Source: Eledone cirrhosa (Eukaryota). Taken from it: a stretch of DNA of 64,000 nt. Where the stretch lies: positions 366,420,001 to 366,484,000 of the forward strand of contig OZ024740.1 in NCBI GenBank assembly GCA_964016885.1, read 5' to 3'. Under the pieces are notes generated by a model. It searched no databases and had not been told where the DNA came from. It was given only the letters and a program-made list of their open reading frames with translations. This document shows positions 8,525-64,000 of the stretch, piece by piece; positions within the stretch are counted from its first letter, which is position 1; every line of letters starts with the position of its first letter. Position numbers and translations under genes: made by a program.

Positions 8525-11500
8525 ACAATGGGCTGGGTGGAGTAGGAATCATGGTAGCAGAAAAGTGGGCAGATAAGATAATAGACGTAAATAGAGTGAA
8601 CGACAGAATAATTAAAATAAGACTTGTCCTCAATAGAACTACTGTGACAATAATATCTGCATATGCACACAATCCGGACTGCCTGGCGTTATAAAAGACA
8701 GATTCTATGAGTCGTTAATGCTCACTACCTCCCAAATAACTGACAGTGACTACATAATTATCGCTGGCGACCTAAATGGTCACGTTGGACAACATTGTGA
8801 TGGCTACGACGGAATCCATGGAGGCTATGGGTTTGGTACTAGAAATGAGGAAGGCTCCAGAATCCTGGAATTCTGTGACGCAAATAACCTAATTATCTGT
8901 AACACTAACTTAAAAAAACGAGACAATCATTTGATCACCTATGGATCAGGGGAACACACCAGCCAGATAGATTATATCCTTATCAGAAGACGTGACAGAG
9001 TGTCTGTTGTAAACACTAAATCCCTGCCCCATGAAGAATGCACCTCTCAACATAGACTCATAATTAGCGACCTCATAGTCAGGATGAGACGTACTAGACA
9101 ACAGAGGAGGACTATCCTCAGGAGAAAAATATGGAAGCTAAAGGACTCCACAGCCAGTAATAAATTTAAAAGCATATTACTTGATGCTTTTGATAGTAAG
9201 GAAGAGCAATTAGAGTCGTACAATATAGAGGAACAGCGGGAATTCCTGAAAGCTAACCTGCTGAAGGCGACAGATGAAATCTGTGGCTGGAGCAGACCTA
9301 TAGGCAGGAAGAGAGTAACTTGGTGGTGAAACAGTAAGGTGGAGGAGTCAATCAAGGCCAAAAAGCAGGCTTGGAAAGCATGGCGGGATGGGGGAGGTAG
9401 AGAAGACTATCAAGTGGCCAGGAGGGAAGCTAGGAAACAAGTGTACTTCGCAAGAAGGGAAGCAGAGGAAAGAAAGTTCAAGCATGTTCTACAACGCGAG
9501 GACCAAAAACGTGAGGTGTTCAGGATTGCTAGGCAATGTGTCAAGGAAAACCGTGATATTGTCGGGGAGAAGTGTGTCCTTAATGATGATGGTGTACTTG
9601 CCATCACTGATGCTGATAAGAAGGTAGCTTCGAAGTTTCACTATGAAAGGCTACTAAATGAGGAGAATAAATGGGAGAAAGACAGTCTCCCCCCACATCG
9701 ATCCAATAGAGGGACCAGCAGTGCAAGTTGAAGGTAGTATAATAAGTAAGGCGATCAAAGATATGAAGACAGGCAAGGCGGCTGGGCCTTCAGAAATAGT
9801 TGCTGAAATGCTGAAAGCATCTGGAACGGTGGGACACACTATGGTCACCCGGATAGTAAACCAAGTCATACAGAATGGGGTTGTTCTGAAGGACTGGCGT
9901 AGCAGCATCATCATTAACTGCTACAAGGTTAAAGGAGATGCCCTAGATAGGGGAAACTATATAGGCATTAAATTAATTGACCAGGTCATGAAGGTCACAG
10001 AAAAAGTAATAGTGCAACTAATCAGAGAGCGAATTGATCTAGATGAAATGCAGTTCGGGTTTGTGTCAGGTAAAAGTACCACAGATGCTCTTTTCATTGT
10101 ACGACAACTACAAGAGAAGTACCTAGCTAAAAGTAAGCCCCTATAGTTAGCTTTTGTTGACTTGGAGAAAGCTTTTGACAGAGTCCCCCGCTCAATTATC
10201 TGGTGGGCTCTTAGAAAACTAGGTGTTGATGAATGGCTTGTGAGAGCTATACAAGCCATGTATAAAGAAACAGTCAGCAATGTTAGAATTAACAACGAAT
10301 ATAGTGAAGAGTTTAGCGTAAAAGTTGGTGTTCATCAGGGCTCCATCCTTAACCTCCTCCTATTTATTATTGCCCTTCAGGCTATAACAGAGAAGTTCAA
10401 GACCGGCTGCCCATGGGAGCTCCTATACGCAAATGATCTAACGCTCATAGCTGAATCAATGGCTGAACTAGAGAAGAAATTCCAAACATGGAAGCATGGC
10501 CTAGAATCAAAAGGCCTTAAAATTAACCTGTCTAAGACTAAAGTTCTAGTTTGTAGGAAGGAAAATAGGGCACTGGTCCCATCTGGGAAATGGCCATGCT
10601 CAGTGTGTAGGAAAGGAGTAGGCAGAAACTCCATTTTATGTCCCAAATGCAAAGTATGGGTGCATAAAAGATGTAGTGGGATCACAGGTAAGCTAACTAA
10701 GAATATAGATTTTATATGTGGCCGGTGCTCAGGTGCAATAAGTAGCAGCAAATGCCCACAGAATACTAGCTCATTCCATTGCACAGATGGTTCTATAGAA
10801 ATAGTGGACACCTCCCATTACCTGGGTGACAAAATCAGTAGTGGTGGAGGGTGCTCTGAAAGTACAGTAGCTAGAATCAGAACGGGATGGAAAAAGTTCA
10901 GAGAGCTTATACCACTTTTGGCCGCTAAAGGGTTCTCTCGAAAAATGAAAGGCAGGCTGTATGATGCCTGCATACGAACAGCAATGTTACATGGGCTTTG
11001 TGTGCAGAGAATATACGCAGACTGGAGAGGAATGAAGCTTGCATGCTCCGTTGGATGTGTAATAGTAATATACATGAACGGCAAAGCATAAATGAACTAA
11101 GGGAGAAATTAGGAATAAGAGGGATCAGATGTTATTTACTTAAGAGAAGACTATGTTGGTATGGTCACGTGATGCGCATGAAAGATGACAGCTGTATAAA
11201 AAAGCGAAGGGCGATCAAAATAGACGGTAGTCACGGAGTAGGCAAACCCAGAAACACCTGGGACGACTTGATAAATTCCGACATCACACACTTACACCTC
11301 TCCAAGACAATGTCACTGGACCGAGATCTTTGGCGCTACACAGTAATACAGAAGACCCGCCTTGCCTAAGTATAAAGCAAAACCTACAGTCAGTAGGCAC
11401 CTCTTAACAAAAATACACCCCCGTTCCACAACCCCCACCCGATCCACACCACCCTGTAAAGTTATGTTGGTACCACAACATCTAGTCCGAAATAAAGGAG

Positions 11501-18418: not shown

Positions 18419-18473
18419 ACTGCCTGAAGAGGTCACAGCCAAAGATGGCTGTCACCGAAATATATATAGCAGT
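18419..18473 (+). ncRNA. Type I hammerhead ribozyme motif (intact core)
   Basis: ACTGC-CTGAAGA-GGT c ACAGCCA aaga TGGCTGT c ACC-GAAA-TATATA-TA-GCAGT. Stems I and II pair and stem III is palindromic. Confidence 0.85.
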
Positions 18474-20002: not shown

Positions 20003-22100
20003 CACCGTGTAACATATTTTTTGTTCCCCGGTTCTAAGTGTCATTTCATGGTTTGTTATATCCCACTATTATAAAAAACACACAATTATTTAATCAGAAG
20101 TTTGGGTTTGTGATCAGGAGTTTGATATTTCGAAATTTTCATATTTTTCAAGAAAAAACACATTTTTTTTAAATTTATCAGTTCATATAATTAAATCAAC
20201 AGAGTATATATCTATTTTATTACACAAGCTTATCAAAAGCAAACAAGTAAAAACAAATAACACTTATAAAGCAACTTATACACATCAAAAATTACAGGAT
20301 TTCCTGGATTTGCGGTTGTAGTCCAGGTCGCATTCCCGCACTAGCCCCCAGATATAGTCTCCCATCATTTTTTCATTGTAGTGGCCCTGGTACCTCCGCT
20401 CTATCTCTTTCACATCTTGGTGGAATCGTTCGCCTTGTTCTTCTGAGTAGGCGCCCATATTGTCCTTGAATTTTCCAGGTGGGCGTCCAGCATATGGAGT
20501 TTAAGCGACATCCTACATCCCATGGTGCCAAAAGCCTTTATCAGATCCTGCACCAGTTGCTGGTAGTTTTCAGCTCTGTAGTTGCCCAGGAAGCCCTTAA
20601 CAACTGCCTTGAAACAGTTCCATGCTGTTCTCTCAATCCTATTGAGCTTATTGGAGAACTCGGTAGACTCAAATACCTTCTTTATCTGAGGTCCAACAAA
20701 AATTCCAGCTTTGAATTTGGCCTCAGATAACTTGAGGAAGAACTCAAGGAGGTACTTAAAAGCGGCTGATTCTTGGTTGAGAACCTTCACAAACTGCTTC
20801 ATCAACCCCAACTTAATGTGCAGTGGCGGCATGAGCACAATCCTGGGATCAACCAGTGGCTCCCACATGACGTTCCGGGTCCCAAATACAAATTCTGTTC
20901 GCTGCTCCCAGTTCTTTCTTTTGTAGTGGTCAGAGGTGGCTCGGCTGTCCCAAAGGCAGAGGAAGCATTGGAATTTGATAAAGCCTCCTTGGAGTTGAAG
21001 CAGGAAAGCCACCATCTTGAAGTCTCCAATGATTTCCCAATTGTACTGGTTGTATTGTAGAGCTTCCAAGAGGACTTTCACACTGTAGTAATCTTCCTTC
21101 AGACAGACTGAATGAGCTAGGGGAAGTGTCGGGAACTTGTTTCCATTGTGGAGGAAGACAGCCTTCAAACTTGTGGTGGAGCTGTCTATAAATAGCCGCC
21201 ACTCCTTGGGCACAAATGGCACCCCAATAACGTCAAATAGTCCAGACACGTCATGGCAGAAGCAGAGGCCATCCCTAAGAGTGTAAAAGGTTTGCGTCGA
21301 CTTCTCTGACTTGTCACCTGCACTTCCTCCTTGACCAAGTTCCACTGCTTCATCCTGGAGACGAATAGCTCTGCATTGGACTTGGTCAGACCCATATCCC
21401 CGACCAAGTCATTGACTTCTTTTTGGTTTGGGAAGTGAGGAACTTTTTCTGGTACCCCAGGCAGGTAATCCAAGTCCTCAGCATCCATCTCCTCCTCTTC
21501 ATCAGAATACTTGTCTTGGAAAATAAATTTGATATACAATACAAAATAAATATTGGAAAGGGAAATACATATTTAAATAATATAAAAGAACACTAATCAT
21601 ACTAATGAAAATTCGTGCTTAAAACACAACTTACCCTTTATTCAGGGTGCAAAAATCCAGTATCAATAAATCTCTTTAATCCACTTTTTAACAATTTTAT
21701 ACTTTATTGTACTTTTATAATTTTCTTTAGGTATTACTCTTTATTTTATCATTTTAATTTAACCGGAAACATATATAAAAAAATCATTTAACATAAACAT
21801 ATATAAAAAAAATCATTTAACATAAGCAAATTAAACTTACATACAACGTTAAATCCAGCATACAAATCATTCTAGTGAATAGCTTAGAATTTTTACAAAC
21901 CCAAACTTTTACCTGTTTAATAGCACTTTTTTTTAAATTTGGGGCCTAAGCAACACAAAAAAAGTGATTACAAGCCAGGAAAAGAGAAAAAAAAATTTTT
22001 TGTTACAAGAACTCCAGTTCAGATTATAATCTGAACTGGATCTGGAAAAACTGTTGTATGCTTCTACATTTTTGATGGAGTTCTTTTACTTTTAGTAAAT
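20003..22100 (-). mobile_element. Decayed CMC/Chapaev3-like DNA transposon with frameshifted transposase
   Basis: ORFs 21186..21539 and 20410..21345 have WRLFIDSS..SLKAVFLHNGN, GDFK, CFLCLWDSRA, PPLHIKLGLMKQFVK and MSLKLH. Terminus CACCGTGTAAC at 20003. Family assigned from recalled motifs. Confidence 0.75.
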
Positions 22101-29191: not shown

Positions 29192-29250
29192 GCTGGTATG
29201 TTTATTTTGGTGATAACCATTATTCAACAGCTATGACCTCATCAGACAGC
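29192..29250 (-). ncRNA. Decayed hammerhead ribozyme motif
   Basis: Minus strand: GCTGT-CTGATGA-GGT c ATAGCT..GGTTAT c ACC-AAAA(GAAA mutated)-TAAACA-TA-CCAGC. Confidence 0.6.
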
Positions 29251-29280
29251 TAGAACTTGAACAGAAAAAACAGAAAAACA

Positions 29281-29465
29281 TAATTGTCTCTACTTTAGGT
29301 ACAAGGCCAGCAATTACCCAGTGCATTACTGGTACTTTATTTTATCGACCCCGTAAGGATGAAAGGCAAAGTCAACCTCAGCGGGATTTGAACTCAGATC
29401 GTAAAGGGACGTAACTATGCTGGAAAGCATGGCGTCCGACCCTCTACTGATACTGCCAATCCACC
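29281..29465 (-). mobile_element. tRNA-derived SINE family A inserted in the left arm
   Basis: Reverse complement of 48952-49137. Confidence 0.9.
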
Positions 29466-29532
29466 GGAACAAAGTTTACCTCTGTTATTTTGATCTTTGA
29501 TGTGGCCAAACACTGTAACGTCGAGTCTCTCC

Positions 29533-29586
<54 letters not shown>

Positions 29587-29612
29587 GGAGAGACTCGACG
29601 TTACAGTGTTTG

Positions 29613-29648
<36 letters not shown>

Positions 29649-29798
29649 ACCACTTCTTTGAGAAAACAAGACCATACTTCAGGACTGGCCACATCAAAGA
29701 TCAAAATAACAGAGGTAAACTTTGTTCCATCATTATGTTTTTCTGTTTTTTTCTGTTCAAGTTCTAGCTATCTGATGAGGTCATAGCTGTTGAATAAT

Positions 29799-30145
29799 GT
29801 GCGTGAACGACCCAGCATAAATGTGTTGAGAGAGAAACTGTGTTTGAGAGGGATAGAATGTAGTGTACGGGAGAGGAGACTGAGGTGGTATGGACATGTG
29901 ATGCGCATGGAGGATAACCGATGGGTGAAGAAGTGCCAGGAAATGCCAGTTGAAGGAAGACGTGGTAGAGGTAGACCACGAAAAACATGGGCGGAGGTGG
30001 TGAGAACAGACCTCAGATCATTGAAGCTAACGGTGGAGATGACGAAGGACTGTGACGAGTAGAGAGATGCTGTGCTGAATAAGACCCGTCCCACCCTTGC
30101 AAGCAGGGAAAAGCGGATGTAAAATGATGATGATGATGATGATGA
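29799..30145 (+). mobile_element. RTE LINE 3' fragment
   Basis: RRLRWYGHVMRMED..GRGRPRKTW and a (GAT)n tail. Confidence 0.9.
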
Positions 30146-30229: not shown

Positions 30230-30260
<31 letters not shown>

Positions 30261-30332
30261 AAGGACGTAAAATAAGAAAATATTTTTTAAAAAAAATTTA
30301 AAAAAAATTTTTTTTTACTTACTTAAATTTTC

Positions 30333-30414
30333 ACTCCAACTAATTAGTTTCTGCAATGGGATAAAGACAGTTACGTAATCCAACTGTCGAGAATTCATTG
30401 CGTCATCAGGGAGT
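30333..30414 (-). ncRNA. Hammerhead ribozyme motif (array left arm, copy 1)
   Basis: Reverse complement of 32558-32639. Confidence 0.8.
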
Positions 30415-30891
30415 CTATTCTCAGTTAAGTCTCCAGGCAATGCGCGGACACTGGCGGCTCATATAAAAATAATAATAATTCGGTAGATCGAACAGCTTGC
30501 GAGGACTGGATTCTATGTGCCGAAATTCTCACTGCTTCAAGTCAAATGGCCGATTCTAAAGAATCAATCACGTGACACAGAGGCTAGTTAGAAGGAATGG
30601 GATGGTAAGATGACTGACGCCTACTAACACCACAAAAAAATTTTTTTTAGAAGTGGTTTTGACAAGTTTGCTCGACAAATCAGTGATTTGGAGATAAATA
30701 TAGATAATTTAATATATCAACTAACATAAGCGCACAGATGCACGCCCATGCCAGCAAATACACAGGTTATGTCATAGTACCTAGGTGGTTCAATGCAGGA
30801 GAATGCAGAACAATAATATAAAGGACGTAAAATAAGAAAATATTTTTTTAAAAAAATTTTTAAAAAATTTTTTTTACTTACTTAAATTTTC

Positions 30892-30973
30892 ACTCCAACT
30901 AATTAGTTTCTGCAATGGGATAAAGACAGTTACGTAATCCAACTATCGAGAATTCATTGCGTCATCAGGGAGT
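30892..30973 (-). ncRNA. Hammerhead ribozyme motif (array left arm, copy 2)
   Basis: Same motif, with one substitution in the distal stem II. Confidence 0.8.
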
Positions 30974-31451
30974 CTATTCTCAGTTAAGTCTCCAGGCAAT
31001 GCGCGGACACTGGCGGCTCATATAAAAATAATAATAATTCGGTAGATCGAACAGCTTGCGAGGACTGGATTCTATGTGCCGAAATTCTCACTGCTTCAAG
31101 TCAAATGGCCGATTCTAAAGAATCAATCACGTGACACAGAGGCTAGTTAGAAGGAATGGGATGGTAAGATGACTGACGCCTACTAACACCACAAAAAATT
31201 TTTTTTTAGAAGTGGTTTTGACAAGTTTGCTCGACAAATCAGTGATTTGGAGATAAATATAGATAATTTAATATATCAACTAACATAAGCGCACAGATGC
31301 ACGCCCATGCCAGCAAATACACAGGTTATGTCATAGTACCTAGGTGGTTCAATGCAGGAGAATGCAGAACAATAATATAAAGGACGTAAAATAAGAAAAT
31401 ATTTTTTTAAAAAAATTTTTAAAAAAATTTTTTTTACTTACTTAAATTTTC

Positions 31452-31533
31452 ACTCCAACTAATTAGTTTCTGCAATGGGATAAAGACAGTTACGTAATCC
31501 AACTGTCGAGAATTCATTGCGTCATCAGGGAGT
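31452..31533 (-). ncRNA. Hammerhead ribozyme motif (array left arm, copy 3)
   Basis: Reverse complement of 32558-32639. Confidence 0.8.
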
Positions 31534-32021
31534 CTATTCTCAGTTAAGTCTCCAGGCAATGCGCGGACACTGGCGGCTCATATAAAAATAATAATAATTC
31601 GGTAGATCGAACAGCTTGCGAGGACTGGATTCTATGTGCCGAAATTCTCACTGCTTCAAGTCAAATGGCCGATTCTAAAGAATCAATCACGTGACACAGA
31701 GGCTAGTTAGAAGGAATGGGATGGTAAGATGACTGACGCCTACTAACACCACAAAAAAATTTTTTTTAGAAGTGGTTTTGACAAGTTTGCTCGACAGATC
31801 AGTGATTTGGAGATAAATATAGATAATTTAATATATCAACTAACATAAGCGCACAGATGCACGCCCATGCCAGCAAATACACAGGTTATGTCATAGTACC
31901 TAGGTGGTTCAATGCAGGAGAATGCAGAACAATAATATAAAGGACGTAAAATAAGAAAATATTTTTTAAAAATTTTTTTTTAAAAAAAAAATTTTTTTTT
32001 TTTAAAAATTTTTTTTTTTTT

Positions 32022-32064
<43 letters not shown>

Positions 32065-32557
32065 TTAAAAAAAAAAATTTAAGTAAGTAAAATTAAAAAA
32101 AAATTTTTAAAAAATTTTTTTTAAAAAACATTTTCTTATTTTACGTCCTTTATATTATTGTTCTGCATTCTCCTGCATTGAACCACCTAGGTACTATGAC
32201 ATAACCTGTGTATTTGCTGGCATGGGCGTGCATCTGTGCGCTTATGTTAGTTGATATATTAAATTATCTATATTTATCTCCAAATCACTGATTTGTCGAG
32301 CAAACTTGTCAAAACCACTTCTAAAAAAAAATTTTTTTGTGGTGTTAGTAGGCGTCAGTCATCTTACCATCCCATTCCTTCTAACTAGCCTCTGTGTCAC
32401 GTGATTGATTCTTTAGAATCGGCCATTTGACTTGAAGCAGTGAGAATTTCGGCACATAGAATCCAGTCCTCGCAAGCTGTTCGATCTACCGAATTATTAT
32501 TATTTTTATATGAGCCGCCAGTGTCCGCGCATTGCCTGGAGACTTAACTGAGAATAG

Positions 32558-32639
32558 ACTCCCTGATGACGCAATGAATTCTCGACAGTTGGATTACGTA
32601 ACTGTCTTTATCCCATTGCAGAAACTAATTAGTTGGAGT
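32558..32639 (+). ncRNA. Hammerhead ribozyme motif (array right arm, copy 1)
   Basis: ACTCC-CTGATGA-c GCAATG...GACAGTT ggattacgt AACTGTC...CATTGC a-GAAA-CTAATTAG-TT-GGAGT. Confidence 0.8.
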
Positions 32640-33117
32640 GAAAATTTAAGTAAGTAAAAAAAAATTTTTTAAAAATTTTTTTTAAAAAATATTTTCTTAT
32701 TTTACGTCCTTTATATTATTGTTCTGCATTCTCCTGCATTGAACCACCTAGGTACTATGACATAACCTGTGTATTTGCTGGCATGGGCGTGCATCTGTGC
32801 GCTTATGTTAGTTGATATATTAAATTATCTATATTTATCTCCAAATCACTGATTTGTCGAGCAAACTTGTCAAAACCACTTCTAAAAAAAATTTTTTTGT
32901 GGTGTTAGTAGGCGTCAGTCATCTTACCATCCCATTCCTTCTAACTAGCCTCTGTGTCACGTGATTGATTCTTTAGAATCGGCCATTTGACTTGAAGCAG
33001 TGAGAATTTCGGCACATAGAATCCAGTCCTCGCAAGCTGTTCGATCTACCGAATTATTATTATTTTTATATGAGCCGCCAGTGTCCGCGCATTGCCTGGA
33101 GACTTAACTGAGAATAG

Positions 33118-33199
33118 ACTCCCTGATGACGCAATGAATTCTCGACAGTTGGATTACGTAACTGTCTTTATCCCATTGCAGAAACTAATTAGTTGGAGT
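33118..33199 (+). ncRNA. Hammerhead ribozyme motif (array right arm, copy 2)
   Basis: Identical to 32558-32639. Confidence 0.8.
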
Positions 33200-33684
33200 G
33201 AAAATTTAAGTAAGTAAAAAAAAAAAAAAAATTTTTTTTAAATTTTTTTAAAAAAATATTTTCTTATTTTACGTCCTTTATATTATTGTTCTGCATTCTC
33301 CTGCATTGAACCACCTAGGTACTATGACATAACCTGTGTATTTGCTGGCATGGGCGTGCATCTGTGCGCTTATGTTAGTTGATATATTAAATTATCTATA
33401 TTTATCTCCAAATCACTGATTTGTCGAGCAAACTTGTCAAAACCACTTCTAAAAAAAATTTTTTTGTGGTGTTAGTAGGCGTCAGTCATCTTACCATCCC
33501 ATTCCTTCTAACTAGCCTCTGTGTCACGTGATTGATTCTTTAGAATCGGCCATTTGACTTGAAGCAGTGAGAATTTCGGCACATAGAATCCAGTCCTCGC
33601 AAGCTGTTCGATCTACCGAATTATTATTATTTTTATATGAGCCGCCAGTGTCCGCGCATTGCCTGGAGACTTAACTGAGAATAG

Positions 33685-33766
33685 ACTCCCTGATGACGCA
33701 ATGAATTCTCGACAGTTGGATTACGTAACTGTCTTTATCCCATTGCAGAAACTAATTAGTTGGAGT
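33685..33766 (+). ncRNA. Hammerhead ribozyme motif (array right arm, copy 3)
   Basis: Identical to 32558-32639. Confidence 0.8.
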
Positions 33767-33954
33767 GAAAATTTAAGTAAGTAAAAAAAAATTTTTAAAA
33801 AATTTTTTTTAAAAATTATTTTCTTATTTTACGTCCTTTATATTATTGTTCTGCATTCTCCTGCATTGAACCACCTAGGTACTATGACATAACCTGTGTA
33901 TTTGCTGGCATGGGCGTGCATCTGTGCGCTTATGTTAGTTGATATATTAAATTA

Positions 33955-34004
<50 letters not shown>

Positions 34005-36952: not shown

Positions 36953-36956
<4 letters not shown>

Positions 36957-39900
36957 CCAGAGGCCTATACTATCGCTTGCCTGGTTGCCTTTCGATATAT
37001 GATGGATGGATGGACTGCGGAATCCTGGAGAGTGGAGGAGAGAGAGAGAAAAATCTGGACGCTCAAGCGACAATGCCAAAGATAAAGACAAATTCACCTC
37101 TTGGACGAGAATGCGAGCACTCATTGTTTCGACCGCGGACGGCTAACATAACCCCATCGCCCTCCGCCCCCCACCGCCCCCAACCCCCAAACGCAATCCA
37201 AAACTTCAGAGTTGGTACCATAAATGTAGGCACCCTAAAGGGTCGCGCTAACGAGGTTGTAGAAATGCTTGAACGTAAGGAGGTCGATGTTTGTTGTATT
37301 CAAGAGACCAGGTGGAGGGGTGGGTCTGCTAGGTTCATTGAGGGTAAAAAACGATGTTATAAGCTTTTCTGGGTGGGAAACGACGATGGGCTGGGTGGAG
37401 TAGGAATCATGGTAGCAGAAAAGTGGGCAGATAAGATAATAGACGTAAATAGAGTGAACGACAGAATAATTAAAATACAACTTGTCCGCAATAGAACTAC
37501 GGTGACAGTAATATCTGCATACGCACCCCAATCCGGGCTGCCCGGCACTATAAAAGACAGATTCTATGAGACACTGATGCTAACTACCTCCCAAATATCC
37601 GACAGTGACTATATAATTATCGCAGGCGACCTAAATGGTCACGTTGGACAACATTGTGACGGCTACGACGAAATCCATGGAGGCTATGGGTTTGGTACTA
37701 GAAATGAGGAAGGCTCCAGAATCCTGGAATTCTGTGATGCAAATAACCTAACTATCTGTAACACTAACTTCAAAAAACGTGACAATCACCTGATCACCTA
37801 TAGATCCGGGGAACACACAAGCCAGGTAGATTATATCCTTACCAGAAGACGTGACAGAGTGTCTGTTGTAAACACTAAATCCCTCCCCCATGAAGAATGC
37901 ACCTCCCAACATAGACTGATAATTAGCGACCTCATAGTCAGGACGAGACGTACTCGACAGCAGAAGAGGACTATCCTCAGGAGAAAAATATGAAAGCTAA
38001 AGGACCCCACAGCCAGGAATAAATTTCAAAGCATATTACTTGATGCTTTCAACAGTAAGGAAGAACATTTAGAGTCGGACAATATAGAGGGAGAGTGGGA
38101 ATTTCTGAAAGCAAACCTGCTGTTGGCGACAGACGAAGTCTGTGGCTGGAGCAGGCCTGTAGGCAGGAGGAGAGTAACATGGTGGTGGAACAGTAAGGTG
38201 GAGGGGTCAATTAAGGCCAAAAAGCAGGCTTGGAAAGTATGGCGGGATGGGGGAAGTAGAGAAGACTATCAAGTGGCCAGGAGGGAAGCTAGGAGACAAG
38301 TGTACTTAGCAAGAAGGGAAGCTGAGGAAAGAAAGTTCAAGCATGTTCTACAACGCGATGACCAAAAACGTGAGGTGTTCAGGATTGCTAGGCAATGCGT
38401 CAAGGAAAACCGTGATATTGTCAGGGAGAAGTGTGTACTAAACGACGATGGCACACTTGCCATCACCGACGCTGATAAGAAGGTAGCTTGGAAGTGTCAC
38501 TATGAAAGGCTACTAAATGAGGAGAATAAATGGGAGAAAGACAGTCTCCCCCATATCGACCCAATAGAGGGACCAGCAGTGTTAGTCGAGGGGAGTATAA
38601 TAAGTAAGGCAATCAAGGATATGAAGACGGGTAAGGCGGCTGGGCCTTCGGAAATAGTTGCTGAGATGCTGAAGGCATCTGGCACGGTGGGACACACCAT
38701 GGTCACCCGCATAGTTAACCAAGTCGTACAGAATGGGGTTGTTCCGAAGGACTGGCATAGCAGCATCATCGTTAACTGTTATAAGGGTAAAGGAGACGCC
38801 CTAGATAGGAGTAACAATAGAGGCATTAAATTAATCGACCAGGTCATGAAGGTCACGGAAAAAGTAATAGCGCAACTAATCAGAGAGAGAATTGACCTAG
38901 ATGAAATGCAGTTCGGGTTTGTGTCAGGCAAAAGTACCACAGACGCTCTTTTCATAGTACGACAACTACAGGAGAAGTACCTAGCTAAAGGTAAACCCCT
39001 CTACTTAGCTTTTCTCGACTTGGAGAAAGCCTTCGACAGAGTCCCCCGCTCCATTATCTGGTGGGCTCTTAGAAAACTAGGCGTTGACGAATGGCTTGTG
39101 AGGGCTATACAAGCCATGTATAAAGAAACAGTCAGCAAGGTTAGAATTAACAACGAATATAGTGAAGAGTTTAGCGTAAAAGTTGGCGTCCATCAGGGCT
39201 CTGTTCTCAGCCCACTACTATTTATTATTGCCCTTCAGGCTATAACAGAGGAGTTCAAGACAGGCTGCCCATGGGAACTCCTATACGCAGACGACCTGAC
39301 ACTCATAGCGGAATCAATGGCCGAGCTAGAGAAGAAATTCCAAACATGGAAGCACGGCCTAGAGTCAAAAGGACTTAAAATTAACCTGGCTAAGACCAAA
39401 GTACTAGTTTGTAGGAAAGAAAACAAGGCGGCGGTCCCTTCTGGGAAATGGTCGTGCTCGGTGTGTAGGAAAGGCGTAGGTAGAAACTCCATTTTATGTC
39501 CTAAATGCAAAGTATGGGTGCATAAAAGATGTAGTGGGATCACAGGTAAGCTAACTAAGAACATAGATTTTACATGTGGCCGGTGCTCTGGTGCAATAAG
39601 TAGCAGCAAGTGCCCACAAAATACTAGCTCTTTCAATTGCGCAGAGGGTTCTATAGAAATAGTGGACAGCTTCCGTTACCTGGGCGATAAAATCAGCAGT
39701 GGGGGAGGGTGCTCTGAAAGTACTGTAGCTAGAGTCAGAACTGGTTGGAAAAAGTTCAGAGAGCTTATACCACTATTAGCTGCTAAAGGGTTCTCACTAA
39801 AAATGAAAGGCAGGTTGTACGATGCCTGCATACGAACAGCAATGCTGCATGGCAGTGAGACCTGGGCATTGTGTGCAGAGGATATACGCAGACTAGAGAG

Positions 39901-40638
39901 GAACGAAGCTTGCATGCTCCGCTGGATGTGTAACAGTAATATACGTGAACGGCAAAGCATAAACGAACTAAGGAAAAAATTAGAGATAAGAGGGATCAGA
40001 TGTTGTTTACTCGAGAGAAGGCTACGTTGGTATGGACACGTGATGCGCATGAAAGTCGATAGCTGTATAACAAAGTGCAGGGCAATAAAGATAGACGGTA
40101 GTCACGGAATAGGCAGACCTAGAAAAACCTGGGACGAGCTGATAAACTCCGACATCACACACTTACACCTCTCCAAGACAATGTCACTGGACCGAGACCT
40201 TTGGCGGTACTCAGTAATAGAGAAGACCCGCCTTACCTAAATATATAGTAAAACCTACTCCAGCCAGTAGGCATCTCTAACAAAATACACCCCGTCCCAC
40301 CACCACCACCCCCACCTCATTCACACCACCCCGTTCTATGTAAAGTTATGTTGGTGCCGCGCCATCCAGGCCGAAACAAATGAGATCGTGTAGGTGTCAC
40401 GACAAAAAAACACACAGTCCACACTGTAATGTGGCCGTGTAGGCAACACGGTAAAAACCTCCCAGACCCACACTGTAAATGTGGTTGGTGTTAGGAAGGG
40501 CATCCAACTGTAGAAAACCTGCCAGACAGTCCTATGCGAGCAAGACAATCACTCTTGCCTCAAGTGGGACTACCCCCGTCCAAACCCATGCAAGCGTGGA
40601 ACACGGACGTTAAACGTTGATGATGATGATGATGATGA
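36953..40638 (+). mobile_element. Near full-length RTE-clade LINE
   Basis: EN ORF 36977..37993 and RT ORF 38123..40240 lie in one frame, separated by a single TGA. 3'UTR and (GAT)n tail present. Confidence 0.96.
37072..40240 (+). pseudogene. RTE ORF: AP endonuclease, reverse transcriptase and PHD-like zinc finger, with one premature stop at 37991
   Basis: GTINVGTL, CIQETRW, GDLNGHVG, SQH; QFGF, DLEKAFD, HQGSVLSP, YADD, YLG; C-x2-C...C-x2-C-x3-VH-x2-C...C-x2-C. Confidence 0.92.
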
Positions 40639-43022: not shown

Positions 43023-43991
43023 CTAAATTTTTTCCATAAACAATACAACCACATTAGATAACTTAGGAGGAAATTTATTGTGCCTTTTTTTGATAATGTT
43101 GTCACTAATTTCATCCCAATTTTCAGCACCACTTTTTACCAGACAAGTATAATGGCCTGCCATAGATGATGCTCCTTCATGAAGAATAGCAGCTTTTAAT
43201 GTGAAATTTGTGCCATATATTTGCTGCTTTTTTGAGCTAAAGTTCATAATATCACAATTAATTCTTTCTTCTTCACTATTAATAAAAAATCTACTAATTG
43301 AGATGACAAGATATTTGAAATCGTTAGTAAATTCAATTCTTGAAGTTATTTGATGCTCAGTATTTTCAGAACAAGTATCACGGTATTTAGTCAAAGTATT
43401 TGTTGTTGAAAGTAGAGATTTAAATTGTTGTGTGCCATTAATAGGATTTAATATCAAATCCTCTTTTATTTGAAATGGAAGTTCAGATTCTATACCACAT
43501 CCAGGTCTTGAATTACAATTGCAAACATTGTTATTTAAAGCTTAGCAGTTTGTTTGATGCAATCGGATGCATCTAGTATGATCAGTTTGAATAAATTGAA
43601 GTTTTTCTCTTAATACCAAGTCCAAATGTAGAGAGAGTTCTTTCCAAAATTCATGAGCACATTGCTGATTTCCATCATGAAATCTTTCTCCAATTATTCT
43701 TCTTAAGTTAGAGACATTATTATGATTATTAAAAATTATATTGCTTAATTCTTGATGTACTCCATTCATGTTGTTAAAATTATGCAAATACTCTACAAAT
43801 TCAGGCAACTGATTCAGTGATTGCACAACTGAATTTGCAAAACAAGCATTTCTTTGGTTGATCAATTGATGTTTAGGGATTAAAGTTTGGCTGTTTTCAT
43901 TTCTTTTCTTCTTTTTGGCAGGTTGGTTTGAATTTTCTTCCAAATTAAGTCTTTTAGTTCTTTTCTTGGGCATGCAAGAAGCATTTGCCAT
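43023..43991 (-). pseudogene. USP/peptidase C19-like deubiquitinase domain, in frame with upstream helicase
   Basis: Cys box NQRNACFANSVVQSL, QQCAHEF, His box ILHEGASSMAGHYTCLV..W...SD. One internal stop at 43542. Confidence 0.75.
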
Positions 43992-45080
43992 TCAAGGATG
44001 CTTTTTCCTGCAAGGTGGCAATGGAGGCAAATCTGCTCTTCCAGTACTAGCCCGTAGTTTGTTGTTCTCTTCCCATGCAGATTTGTCAACCATGATCAAT
44101 GATCTTGGATCAAAGTCATAGAGATACACATTGCAAAGTTTTCTGGCTCTTGAAAGAGCCACATAAGCTTGACCATCAGAAAATATCTGATTTCCTAAAT
44201 CAGCAATTATTCCATCCACAGAAATTCCTTGTGATTTGTGAATTGTTATAGAGTAAGCAAGAGACAATGGAAATTGTGTTCTGGTGACAAAAACACCAGC
44301 AGAAATTTCATAGTCTGCTTGAACTCTTCTAATAGAAATAGGTTTGTCCTTTTTGGTATCAAAAGACGCCAAAATTTTGTCAACATTGCTTCCATTCCCA
44401 ATTAATTCAATAACTGTTCCAATAACACCATTGCATAAGCCTTGATCTACATCAATGTTTCGTTTCAACATCACTCTTGCTCCAATTCCAACATTTAGCA
44501 AAGTTTCTAGTCCAGCAGTATCAAAAGTTTTCTTGGTTTTGCCTTTTTCAACATTTTTCTTTTTTCTTCCATTTACTTGTCTCATACCAGAATCTTTTGC
44601 AGCAAGTTTCACTGCATTTATGTTGCATTTTTTAATCATTTCATTATTCAACTCATCAACAGCTTCATTCAAAGGTAAAATGCATACAAATTTTAATTCA
44701 GGAATAGAATACAATTCAATCAATTTTTTTAGCAATTTCTTCAACAGGAAATAGGCATCTTTTTTGAAAAATGCTAATATCAGAGTCTGATAGGGAACCA
44801 ATCCTAATTCTTCCCAAAATATCAACATAGTTGTCTTTGTCTTCTATTTGTCTCATATTAATGGTTAGCTCATCATATTGAAAGTATTTCCACAATGAAT
44901 TTCCACTAATGCCAATGTCTGTTCTTTTGGCATCATATGATGAAATTCTCGAAAGTACTGGTTTTTCATTTACAGGTGGCAATTGCATCAAATCACCAAA
45001 CAAAAGAAGATTCATTTTTCCAAAAGGATATGCCATTTTTGGGGGATCTCCAAAAATTTCATCAAGCCTTTTGTGAATAA
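43992..45080 (-). pseudogene. PIF1-family helicase C-terminal half (Helitron/Helentron RepHel remnant)
   Basis: PFGKMNLLLFGDLMQLPPV, LTINMRQ, GARVMLKRNID..GLCNG, QFPLSLAYSITIHKSQG, GQAYVALSRA. One frameshift near 44760. Confidence 0.9.
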
Positions 45081-61289: not shown

Positions 61290-61772
61290 ATATATAAAAA
61301 CGAATGGATGTATATAGGTGCTTGGATGTAAACATGCATTATCTCATTATCTGTGTGAGTGCATGTGTATGGAAGCATGTACATGTCACATATGAATTAA
61401 AGATAGTTATTAAAGGAAATAAAATGTATTTTGTAATTCTGCAATTCTCTAAATTCTGTAATCCTATATAATTCCTATAATTCTATAAATCCTATAGAAA
61501 TGAACTTTTACTGGCACAAGGTTTAAATTTTTTCAAGTATTCAAGTATTATTTATAGCTGTGAAAGTAATTCCTCTAAAACTTAGCAAAATCAAATTTGC
61601 TCCAATTATTTGGACCCAGTTCTGTGAAAGTCATTGTTATCAGTCAAGGTGAGAAATAGTTTTAAACTATACAGCCAAAATTAGATTTAGTGCTTGATGT
61701 ATATCTACATACATATATACCTATGTGTAGATATATATATACACATGTGTATATATGTCGATCTGTCTGTCC

Positions 61773-61820
<48 letters not shown>

Positions 61821-62021
61821 ATTAGAGTTAAAACTCAATTGGAACCCTGTAACTATTAAGCTCAAAGTATAAATACTGAGCCGATTAATAATATATAGTA
61901 AGAAACACAGTAAACCGTGTGTCTAAAATTACAAGGGTTGAAAAACCACATTTGTTTGAAATTTTTAACCAAGAAGCAGACAGAATGATAAAATATACAA
62001 ACCGCCTCAATAACCATTATA

Positions 62022-62101
62022 TCTCTCGGACAGATTATCCCTAATCTGTTTCGCCCTGAGTGTGTTTGTAACAGATAATCCTGGGCTTCATCAGCGAGAG
62101 A
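62022..62101 (-). ncRNA. Type I hammerhead ribozyme motif, GUC site
   Basis: TCTCTCG-CTGATGA-a-GCCC..GGGC-GAAA-CAGATTA ggga TAATCTG-TC-CGAGAGA. All three stems pair perfectly. Confidence 0.9.
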
Positions 62102-62402
62102 ATCTGATTAAATGCCACAAACACTATTTGCCAACGTTCACACAGAAAGATGAATTTGTCACCTCGTGCGCCGCTAGTCAAACGTGGTAAGCGTGTATTG
62201 AATAGAAATAACAGTCCAACACACACAACTTAATAAGCTCAACTTGTGAGGGAGCAGAAATATATATGAAAATTAGAGTTAAAACTCAATTGGAACCCTG
62301 TAACTATTAAGCTCAAAGTATAAATACTGAGCCGATTAATAATATATAGTAAGAAACACAGTAAACACGTTGGCAAATAGTGTTTGTGGCATTTAATCAG
62401 AT

Positions 62403-62482
62403 TCTCTCGCTGATGAAGCCCAGGATTATCTGTTACAAACACACTCAGGGCGAAACAGATTAGGGATAAGCTGTCCGAGAGA
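62403..62482 (+). ncRNA. Type I hammerhead ribozyme motif, GUC site (one stem III mismatch)
   Basis: Mirror of 62022-62101. Confidence 0.87.
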
Positions 62483-62603
62483 TATAATGGTTATTGAGGC
62501 GGTTTGTATATTTTATCATTCTGTCTGCTTCTTGGTTAAATATTTCAAACAAATGTGGTTTTTCAACCCTTGTAATTTTAGACACACGGTTTACTGTGTT
62601 TCT

Positions 62604-62665
<62 letters not shown>

Positions 62666-62681
62666 TAAAATAACAGATTAA

Positions 62682-62732
62682 AGTTTAAGCAAAGAATCGC
62701 TGCTTTCACCCTTAACGGGATCTTCTGAAACT
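62682..62732 (-). ncRNA. Decayed hammerhead motif between (TA)n tracts
   Basis: AGTTT-CAGAAGA(U4A)-tCCC gttaa GGGt-GAAA-GCA..TGC-TT-AAACT. Confidence 0.55.
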
Positions 62733-62752
62733 AACAAAAATTTTATTATTAT

Positions 62753-62810
<58 letters not shown>

Positions 62811-62814
<4 letters not shown>

Positions 62815-64000
62815 CATCATCAATCAGGCTATATATGGTGGTGTCATACCCAAAGCCTGGTGCAGCAGTATTCTCATAAATTGCTACAAAGGTAAAGGGG
62901 ATGCTTTGGAGAGGAGCAGTTATAGGGGTATAAAACTGATAGATCAGGTTATGAAAGTGGCAGAAAGGATTTTAGCACAACTAATTAGAGAAAGGGTCAA
63001 ACTAGATGAGATGCAGTTTGATTTTGTGCCTGGGAAGAGTACAACAGATGCCCTCTTCTTGGTGAGACAAATGCAAGAGAGGTTCTTAGAGAAGAATAAG
63101 CCACTATACTTAGCCTTTGTTGACCTAGAGAAGGCCTTTGATAGGGTACCCCGATCTGTCATCTGGTGGTCCCTAAGGAAGCTAGGTGTTGAGGAATGGC
63201 TTGTGAGGACAGTGCAAACTTTGTACAGAGGTACTCTCAGTAAAGTCAGGGTAGGAATGGAGTTTAGTGAGGAATTCCAGATACAAGTAGGAGTACATCA
63301 GGGTTCGGTCCTCAGCCCGCTCTTGTTCATTATAGTCCTCCAAGCCATAACAGAGGAGTTTAAGACTGGCTGTCCATGGGAACTTCTCTATGCTGACGAT
63401 CTGGCTCTTATAGCAGAATCAGTAGAGGAGCTAGAGAATAAATTCCGGCTATGGAAACAGCAGTTGGAAGCAAGAGGACTGAGAGTAAATCTAGCTAAGA
63501 CAAAAGTGTTGATGAGTAGAAAAGAGGACAAAACCCTGATTCCGTCAGGGAAATGGCCATGTTCGATATGCAGAAAAGGAACTGGCATAAATTCTATAAA
63601 ATGCACACAATGCAGGTCCTGGGTACACAAGAGATGTAGCGGGATAGCAGGCAAACTAACAGGTAGGGAGAAATATGTATGCAGTAGATGTACAGGGAAA
63701 TTAGACAGTAGAAGTCACACTGATAGACACATTTTTCAAATGCAAGAGGGCGCTATAGAAGTGGTGGATAGCTTCCGGTACCTAGGAGTCAGATTAGCAT
63801 GGGAGGAGGGTGTTCCGAGGCCATAGTATCTAGAATAAGGACGGGTTGGAAGAAGTTTAGGGAGCTGCTTCCTCTCTTGACGAAGAAGGGTTTCTCCCTG
63901 CGTACGAAAGGCCGGTTGTATGATGCCTGTGTGAAGAGCGCGATGCTGCATGGTAGTGAGACATGGGCAGCAACCGCAGAGGATATGCGACGGCTGGAGA
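62811..64000 (+). mobile_element. 5'-truncated RTE LINE, different subfamily, running off the window
   Basis: ORF 62906..63826 has DLEKAFD, HQGSVLSP, YADD and a PHD-like finger. Frameshift near 63790. Confidence 0.93.

Follow-up and report, generated by a model that had tools for sequence, protein, structure and literature searches.

How did two head-to-head arms of one short, ribozyme-bearing unit come to lie inside a (TA)n microsatellite? The question is raised by positions 61809–62613 of a 64-kb window (the whole stretch of DNA that was analysed), which looks like animal genomic DNA, somewhat reminiscent of cephalopod genomes, with abundant simple repeats and LINE remnants.

Anatomy of the element at 61809–62613

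The unit length of the element is given by a direct repeat. Positions 61809–61915 and 62260–62366 are identical over 107 nt (100%) at a spacing of 451, in agreement with the 451-bp unit and the direct repeat of about 100 bp described in the first-pass annotation. The left arm (61809–62366, minus strand, 558 nt or 1.24 units) consists of a full 451-bp unit (61809–62259, minus strand) and a partial second unit (62260–62366, minus strand), the latter being a direct repeat of pseudo-LTR-like appearance. The full unit has a GC content of 36%, and its longest stop-free frame spans 81 codons. It gave no Pfam match, a coding remnant was looked for in it and none was found, and the open frames of the whole element contained neither an RT nor a GIY-YIG frame. 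The right arm (62367–62613, plus strand) is a 247-nt 5′-truncated inverted copy, the reverse complement of 61891–62137 with two differences in 247 nt (61963/62541 and 62034/62470). The arms are arranged head-to-head, the ribozyme lying on the minus strand in the left arm and on the plus strand in the right one, and both 3′ ends point outward. The abrupt strand flip and the plus-strand partial unit reported earlier are confirmed, the flip lying between 62366 and 62367.

The left 3′ end coincides with the first of two TA sites in the unit (61809–61816) and shares its 8 nt with the end of the left (TA)n target run (61790–61816). The right 3′ end coincides with the second (ATATATA, 61891–61897, minus strand) and has 7 nt in common with the beginning of the right (TA)n target run (62607–62660). 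There are four alternating-AT runs of at least 5 nt in the unit and just two of at least 7 nt, and the outer 3′ ends fall on exactly these two (rough chance 0.001), which bears out the earlier remark that both ends lie at internal TATATA sites. The predicted ribozyme cut lies 220 and 138 nt upstream of the two ends, which are 82 nt apart and separated by a one-sided tail of 82 nt (61809–61890, minus strand). A hairpin at 61854–61890 within the tail has a z-score of −3.0 for a window picked post hoc, while the whole 107 nt give a z-score of −0.8.

At the head-to-head junction (62361–62372) the arms have no exact overlap; the end of the left arm matches the unit sequence across the start of the right arm at 5 of 6 nt, and 2 nt are repeated. 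The junction, which contains no palindrome longer than 4 nt, has an offset of 229 nt, and the two flanks do not mirror each other.

Two other places in the window have a comparable setting. Just to the right of the element, 94 nt (62662–62755) with no second copy within the window lie between two (TA)27 runs and could be a second short insertion into the same microsatellite. At 29218–29799, inverted arms (29500–29619, 98%) surround a (TA)23 run at 29537–29582, with a second TA run at 29616–29645; a 68-nt inverted pair (29218–29284 and 29732–29799) encloses a multicopy SINE-like repeat at about 29280–29466. This is possibly another Penelope-type inverted insertion.

The predicted hammerhead ribozyme and its competing pairings

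Hammerheads were called with a descriptor of our own, in a loose and a strict form, on both strands, together with RNA folding. The 64-kb window gave ten descriptor hits, namely two in the element, six in an array at 30–34 kb and two weak ones, against a background of no strict hit and one loose hit in 30 block-shuffled windows. Over the full window no Rfam match reached the gathering score, and among the 19 Rfam matches at E ≤ 10 in 61700–62700, which are mostly TA-repeat noise, there was no hammerhead; the call therefore rests on descriptor and folding. The two weak hits, at 18424 (plus strand) and 53756 (minus strand), have 3-bp stems II and III and AUA triplets, and are either chance matches or decayed copies.

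The left copy (62022–62101, minus strand) is a predicted type I hammerhead with a GUC triplet, C17 at 62029 and a predicted cut at 62029/62028. It is built of a 7-bp stem I, CUGAUGA with one extra A (at 62087), a 4-bp stem II with a loop of 26 nt, GAAA, and a 7-bp stem III closed by a GGGA loop. The second copy (62403–62482, plus strand, C17 at 62475) was recognized by the descriptor. The first-pass annotation had given the same description, a canonical GUC hammerhead with a 7-bp stem I, an extra A and a GGGA-capped stem III, to which descriptor and folding agree; its stem III holds for the left copy, and it had omitted an A>C mismatch at 62470 in the right one.

An extra A or U at this position is said to have been found tolerated or helpful for cleavage by De la Pena and Flores in 2001. 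The extra nucleotide is not addressed in PMC2632901. In passages of Cervera and de la Pena (2014, PMC4209133), hammerheads of Penelope-like element (PLE) pseudo-LTRs likewise have an extra nucleotide between A9 and G10.1 and a G10.1–C11.1 pair, and occur 100–700 bp apart on opposite strands, as in this element; a circular-template model is proposed there. Different from the short (0–2 bp) palindromic helix III of the canonical metazoan type I hammerhead, stem III here has 7 bp. The metazoan PLE motifs of the same paper have little or no helix III and are probably dimeric, whereas those of fungal and protist PLEs share a long stem III with the element. The hammerhead should be able to fold as a monomer. 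Since each arm holds one predicted ribozyme, release of a monomer from the locus is not possible, and the locus is probably a product and not a source, that is, a dead end, as far as can be judged from its sequence.

In a 106-nt context the best fold is that of the left hammerhead, and stems I–III have probabilities of 0.97–0.98. In longer contexts nested folding disfavours it, and the probability of stems I and II is at most 0.013. When the 5′ flank is added, a segment of loop II (62062–62073, minus strand) pairs with the 5′ flank (62113–62124, minus strand) in a helix of 12 bp, 2 of the 12 being G–U, with a probability of 0.97–1.0, which displaces stems I and II in nested folding. Eight of its Watson–Crick pairs have a shuffle chance of 0.018. 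As a pseudoknot, the same helix is compatible with the hammerhead. By a crude energy sum, in which the penalties are assumed, the pseudoknot has −36 to −39 kcal/mol and the nested fold −37.6 kcal/mol; these energies overlap, and the two are therefore not separable. The modelled pairing would be either a real competitor of the hammerhead or a pseudoknot. As stated in passages of Perreault et al. (2011, PMC3088659), hammerheads commonly have pseudoknots that join the sides of stems I and II and are activating; the one that loop II may form here with the side of stem I would be of this kind. Among the variant rows listed for relatives, the 8-bp core of the helix has no substitution; a substitution at 62116 breaks a G–U pair in the extension of the helix, and a 1-nt insertion follows 62123.

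A conserved distal stem I was not supported: of two changes seen in relatives, 62105 A>G preserves a pair, but 62015 G>A disrupts one in many of them. In the ribozyme of the 30–34 kb array, the 6-bp pairing of the upstream region with loop II was at chance level (P 0.21).

A different alternative had been proposed earlier, in which GATTATC of loop II pairs with GATAATC of stem III. The complement exists (7/7 pairs in the left copy and 6/7 in the right), but is not supported as a fold: its probability is 0.0 in all five contexts computed, and in the 106-nt context it is 6.4 kcal/mol worse than the hammerhead. It also needs bases of the GGGA loop that are variable in relatives, position 62038 differing in 73 of 135 reads of sequencing run X7 and in about 3% of the depth of run X1.

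Family copies and the array at 30–34 kb

Nine sequencing runs are listed; six of them contain all or some of the stretch, and RNA is not recorded for any of the nine. With one unit (61850–62300) as the reference and 80% likeness as the threshold, four of the nine were aligned (X1, X4, X6 and X7). The unit is multicopy, as the first-pass annotation supposed, with matches in 396 contigs of X1 in all identity bands, 667 raw RAD reads of X7, seven contigs of X4, which is from another organism, and two of X6, from a third. Head-to-tail joints of units occur in X1 (depth 97.8) and in X4, i.e. in two organisms.

When contig depths in X1 are summed, which is not a measure of copy number, the value rises from 3,319 at 61882 to 14,903 at 61893 and 24,024 at 61899, and then drops to about 3,000 upstream of the ribozyme. 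The raw reads of X7, which as RAD reads come from few starts, have no such step (about 209, 234 and 253 in the same bins). A 4,895-nt contig of X1 matches the unit within 61891–61970 only, and by its strand the remainder reads as flank beyond 61891. The depth step and this contig point to the second TA site as the likely usual 3′ end of the family, with the 82 nt being an optional tail. Among the loose ends listed (16 of 109 rows), no second copy ends at the first site. The second site is itself variable, with 61895 A>G in 16 contigs of X1 and 113 of 243 reads of X7. One contig of X6 departs from the unit at 61962, directly into an AT run.

Strand-switch joints other than that of the locus were also recovered: 61896/62124 in one contig of X1, and 61976/62268 in three reads of X7 from two starts. 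The flip of the locus itself (61915/62137) is absent among the six joints listed for the four aligned runs. As to the two differences between the arms, the right arm has the common letter of the family at 61963, and 62034 is absent among the variant rows listed.

The variation listed for the family spares the core and stems of the ribozyme. Among the 40 of 128 variant rows listed, none of 38 variant positions falls on the 49 positions of the hammerhead core and stems I–III (P ~0.01), and the five variants that do lie inside the ribozyme are the four bases of loop III and the extra nucleotide (P ~0.007), the latter being U in about 46% of the depth of X1. Taken from a partial list biased by alignable reads, this pattern is suggestive of selection on the ribozyme. 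In X1 and X7, the loose ends at 62101, 62059 and 62042 come from relatives in which the ribozyme is shared in part and the neighbouring loop II, loop III or 5′ flank diverges, as in a group of related families.

In metagenome contigs, a pattern scan returned 36 loci, 6 of which close a minimal hammerhead in a loose test, and none of the 36 shows homology with the unit beyond the pattern itself (best E 0.11); the viral contigs gave 0 matches. Two of these loci on contig Ga0210059_1010542, L015 (1452–2259) and L016 (762–1582), belong to an element that is unrelated but shares the hammerhead core and the extra A, and that has a minimal helix III. They form an 827-nt head-to-head inverted pair (94%) with internal repeats of 270–415 bp, and L002, L010, L018, L019 and L030 are related to them. 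The pair adds to the indications that this geometry is a common one.

The array within the window (30253–33965) has a 560-bp repeat with three minus-strand and three plus-strand hammerheads, a GUU triplet, a short palindromic stem III and an extra post-A9 nucleotide. The unit of the element is unrelated to it, as had been claimed (best BLAST E 0.37). Array and element are alike in that their 3′ ends face outward and lie on runs of the ATATA type, and in their one-sided tail, which in the array is 120 nt with a long hairpin (z-score −3.2 in a window chosen after looking). In the array, the flip is near-symmetric (32012/32074), about 7–10 nt after the cut site and in self-complementary A/T tracts, whereas in the element it lies 113 and 109 nt from the cut site. 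The first-pass annotation regarded the element as having the same geometry and as an independent replicate of the mechanism proposed for the array. Judged by geometry, this stands for the outer ends but not for the number of hammerheads (1+1 versus 3+3) or the position of the flip; given the shared type of end and the differing flip, the element replicates the end rule of the array and not its flip rule. The symmetric flip of the array is more open to being a fold-back artefact than that of the element. The array contains two or more units in succession that carry predicted hammerheads, as demanded of an active retrozyme.

Origin of the insertion and rival explanations

Partial tandems, an adjacent inverted 5′-truncated copy, a tail of 30–40 bp at one end and a bias to (TA)n are reported for PLE insertions in passages of PMC8557442, and the same structure, with head-to-head as the usual order, in passages of PMC3846280. 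A partial tandem with an inverted 5′-truncated copy, a tail at one end and (TA)n flanks are all found here, and with the extra post-A9 nucleotide they make up the published Penelope insertion signature; the geometry is therefore best read as that of a family of non-LTR retrozymes mobilized by a Penelope enzyme. We consider it likely that the locus is a young insertion of a non-autonomous Penelope-type element, a non-LTR retrozyme with a 451-nt unit, moved in trans by a PLE RT/GIY-YIG enzyme. The first-pass annotation had missed this long-described insertion pattern, which removes most of the surprise.

Two classes of known element thus need to be compared. Non-LTR retrozymes were defined by Cervera and de la Pena (2020, PMC7229834) and are linked to PLE pseudo-LTRs by Li, Clavereau and Pollet (2026, 10.64898/2026.07.22.740005), in whose hands one of nine predicted Xenopus elements was cleaved in vitro, according to passages of these papers. 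Their units are about 150–450 bp (51–972 in Li 2026), with a GC content under 45–50%. The element resembles them in several respects: its unit is non-coding, a few hundred bases long and low in GC; each unit has a single type I hammerhead, whose core is intact by descriptor and folding; the family is head-to-tail; and movement by PLE enzymes is proposed. It differs in having one hammerhead per orientation instead of the two consecutive full-hammerhead units of an 'active' locus, in a stem III of 7 bp where theirs is usually 1–2 bp, and in its 26-nt loop II. Inverted insertions and TA-site ends are not described in the compared passages of the two papers. PLEs (PMC8557442; PMC3846280, in the passages compared) share with the element the insertion structure set out above and TATATATA within the terminal repeat; unlike them, the element has no RT plus GIY-YIG ORF and a tail of 82 nt instead of 30–40. 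Naiads, which according to the passages compared are without canonical hammerheads, are unlike the element. In PMC3846280, TATATATA in the pseudo-LTR is taken as a possible promoter, and by analogy this is another possible role for the two AT runs of the element. The family is new and its kind, the non-LTR retrozyme, is known, so this is not a new system; the locus is best filed as a derivative copy, neither an autonomous PLE nor an 'active' retrozyme locus. Within a mostly non-subscription literature, octopus or cephalopod combined with hammerhead, Penelope or retrozyme gave no description of such a family, and Penelope combined with inversion, microsatellite and microhomology gave general papers alone.

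How would such an insertion arise? A head-to-tail master array elsewhere, of the kind whose joints are present in the DNA, would be transcribed. Since both arms read through the predicted cut site and the left arm covers more than one unit, the RNA template would be a circle or an uncut multimer; a linear monomer from cut to cut could supply both arms only with a template jump. A PLE enzyme would nick both strands of (TA)n, and each DNA end would prime its own cDNA, at one or the other of two UA-rich sites that lie 82 nt from each other within the unit, as the positions of the ends suggest. The cDNAs, of 558 and 247 nt, would stop early and be joined head-to-head by repair through the 5/6-nt match. 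The PLE enzyme studied in vitro by Frangieh et al. (2024, PMC11167929), Poseidon of Anolis (PAc), behaves similarly in the passages compared: both strands of AT-rich DNA are cut, reverse transcription starts at two sites within the RNA that enclose the tail, the cDNA crosses the hammerhead cut site, and ribozyme cleavage is not required. However, the priming sites of PAc are not homologous to the cut DNA, whereas the ends of the element match (TA)n over 7–8 nt.

Candidate partners were looked for in the window. Among 13 long frames scanned, none gave a GIY-YIG family match. Frames of LINE-type RT followed by a PHD finger occur at 62735–63826, 36956–40240 and 8637–11091, two of the three with an upstream AP-type endonuclease; they are not of the Penelope kind and are therefore unlikely partners. 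Broken frames at 43023–44843 (minus strand) contain PIF1-like helicase and ubiquitin hydrolase domains, presumably those of a decayed Helitron, and a 332-codon open frame without Pfam match at 20410–21408 (minus strand) is one that we take to be transposase-derived.

The strongest rival concerns the same element and changes the mechanism only. A single cDNA primed at the first site would fold back at the 5/6-nt match and copy its own first part, and its end would be joined to (TA)n at the second site by microhomology, as in the self-priming proposal for rotifer Penelope elements. The junction match is as compatible with such a snap-back as with two annealing cDNAs, the right arm lies entirely inside the span of the left, and the 5′ end of the X6 copy is joined to an AT run, so that AT microhomology can work at a non-primer end. 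Self-priming is argued for in passages of PMC3846280, but the argument there relies on junction palindromes, and the junction here has none longer than 4 nt. Moreover, the second site is the commonest end of the family in X1 and not a one-off, and the arms differ at two positions, with the common family letter in the right arm at 61963, although a later mutation is also possible. We regard fold-back as unlikely on this evidence.

Could the unit instead be the pseudo-LTR of an autonomous PLE, and the locus a heavily 5′-truncated insertion of it with no stand-alone retrozyme? PLE insertions are mostly 5′-truncated, and the loose ends at 62101, 62059 and 62042 are relatives sharing part of the ribozyme. 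However, the left arm passes through the whole unit into a second without any coding stretch, and the head-to-tail closure of the unit in X1 and X4 speaks against this origin as well, which makes it very improbable. An assembly or library artefact, a fold-back chimera beside the TA repeats, seems more improbable still. The exact joint is not among the joints listed for the four runs, and assemblies are known to have difficulty with PLE structures of the tandem and inverted type; yet the offset junction is not palindromic, the flanks are unmirrored, the right arm stops at the preferred end of the family, and independent runs have other strand-switch joints, in keeping with the view of the first-pass annotation that this is no simple fold-back artefact. 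Spread at the DNA level, with a circle excised from a tandem array re-entering (TA)n breaks by microhomology and the ribozyme as a passenger, also fits the TA microhomology at both ends and circular permutation, but it predicts neither outward 3′ ends nor the fall of X1 depth from a preferred end nor ribozyme-sparing variation, and can hardly be the explanation.

Returning to the insertion of a non-LTR retrozyme by a Penelope enzyme, a further scheme might cover both families of the window, which we put forward tentatively and with considerable doubt. Both families would be steered into (TA)n by two single-stranded UA runs flanking a hairpin in circular RNA, which would anneal to the two nicked strands of the target and prime both cDNAs in a homology-primed, telomerase-like Penelope insertion, and the 12-bp helix, as a switch or pseudoknot, would permit the cutting of transcripts while sparing the circular template. 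Such steering by base-pairing would differ from the homology-free priming of PAc in vitro.

The locus is a clean, young and fully non-coding record of a Penelope-type insertion, in which ends, tail, junction and ribozyme are readable at base level. Its support for Penelope enzymes as the movers of animal retrozymes comes from insertion anatomy and not from phylogeny. It also offers a small substrate for studying the origin of tandem and inverted structures and the microsatellite bias of these elements, questions described as open in passages of PMC8557442.
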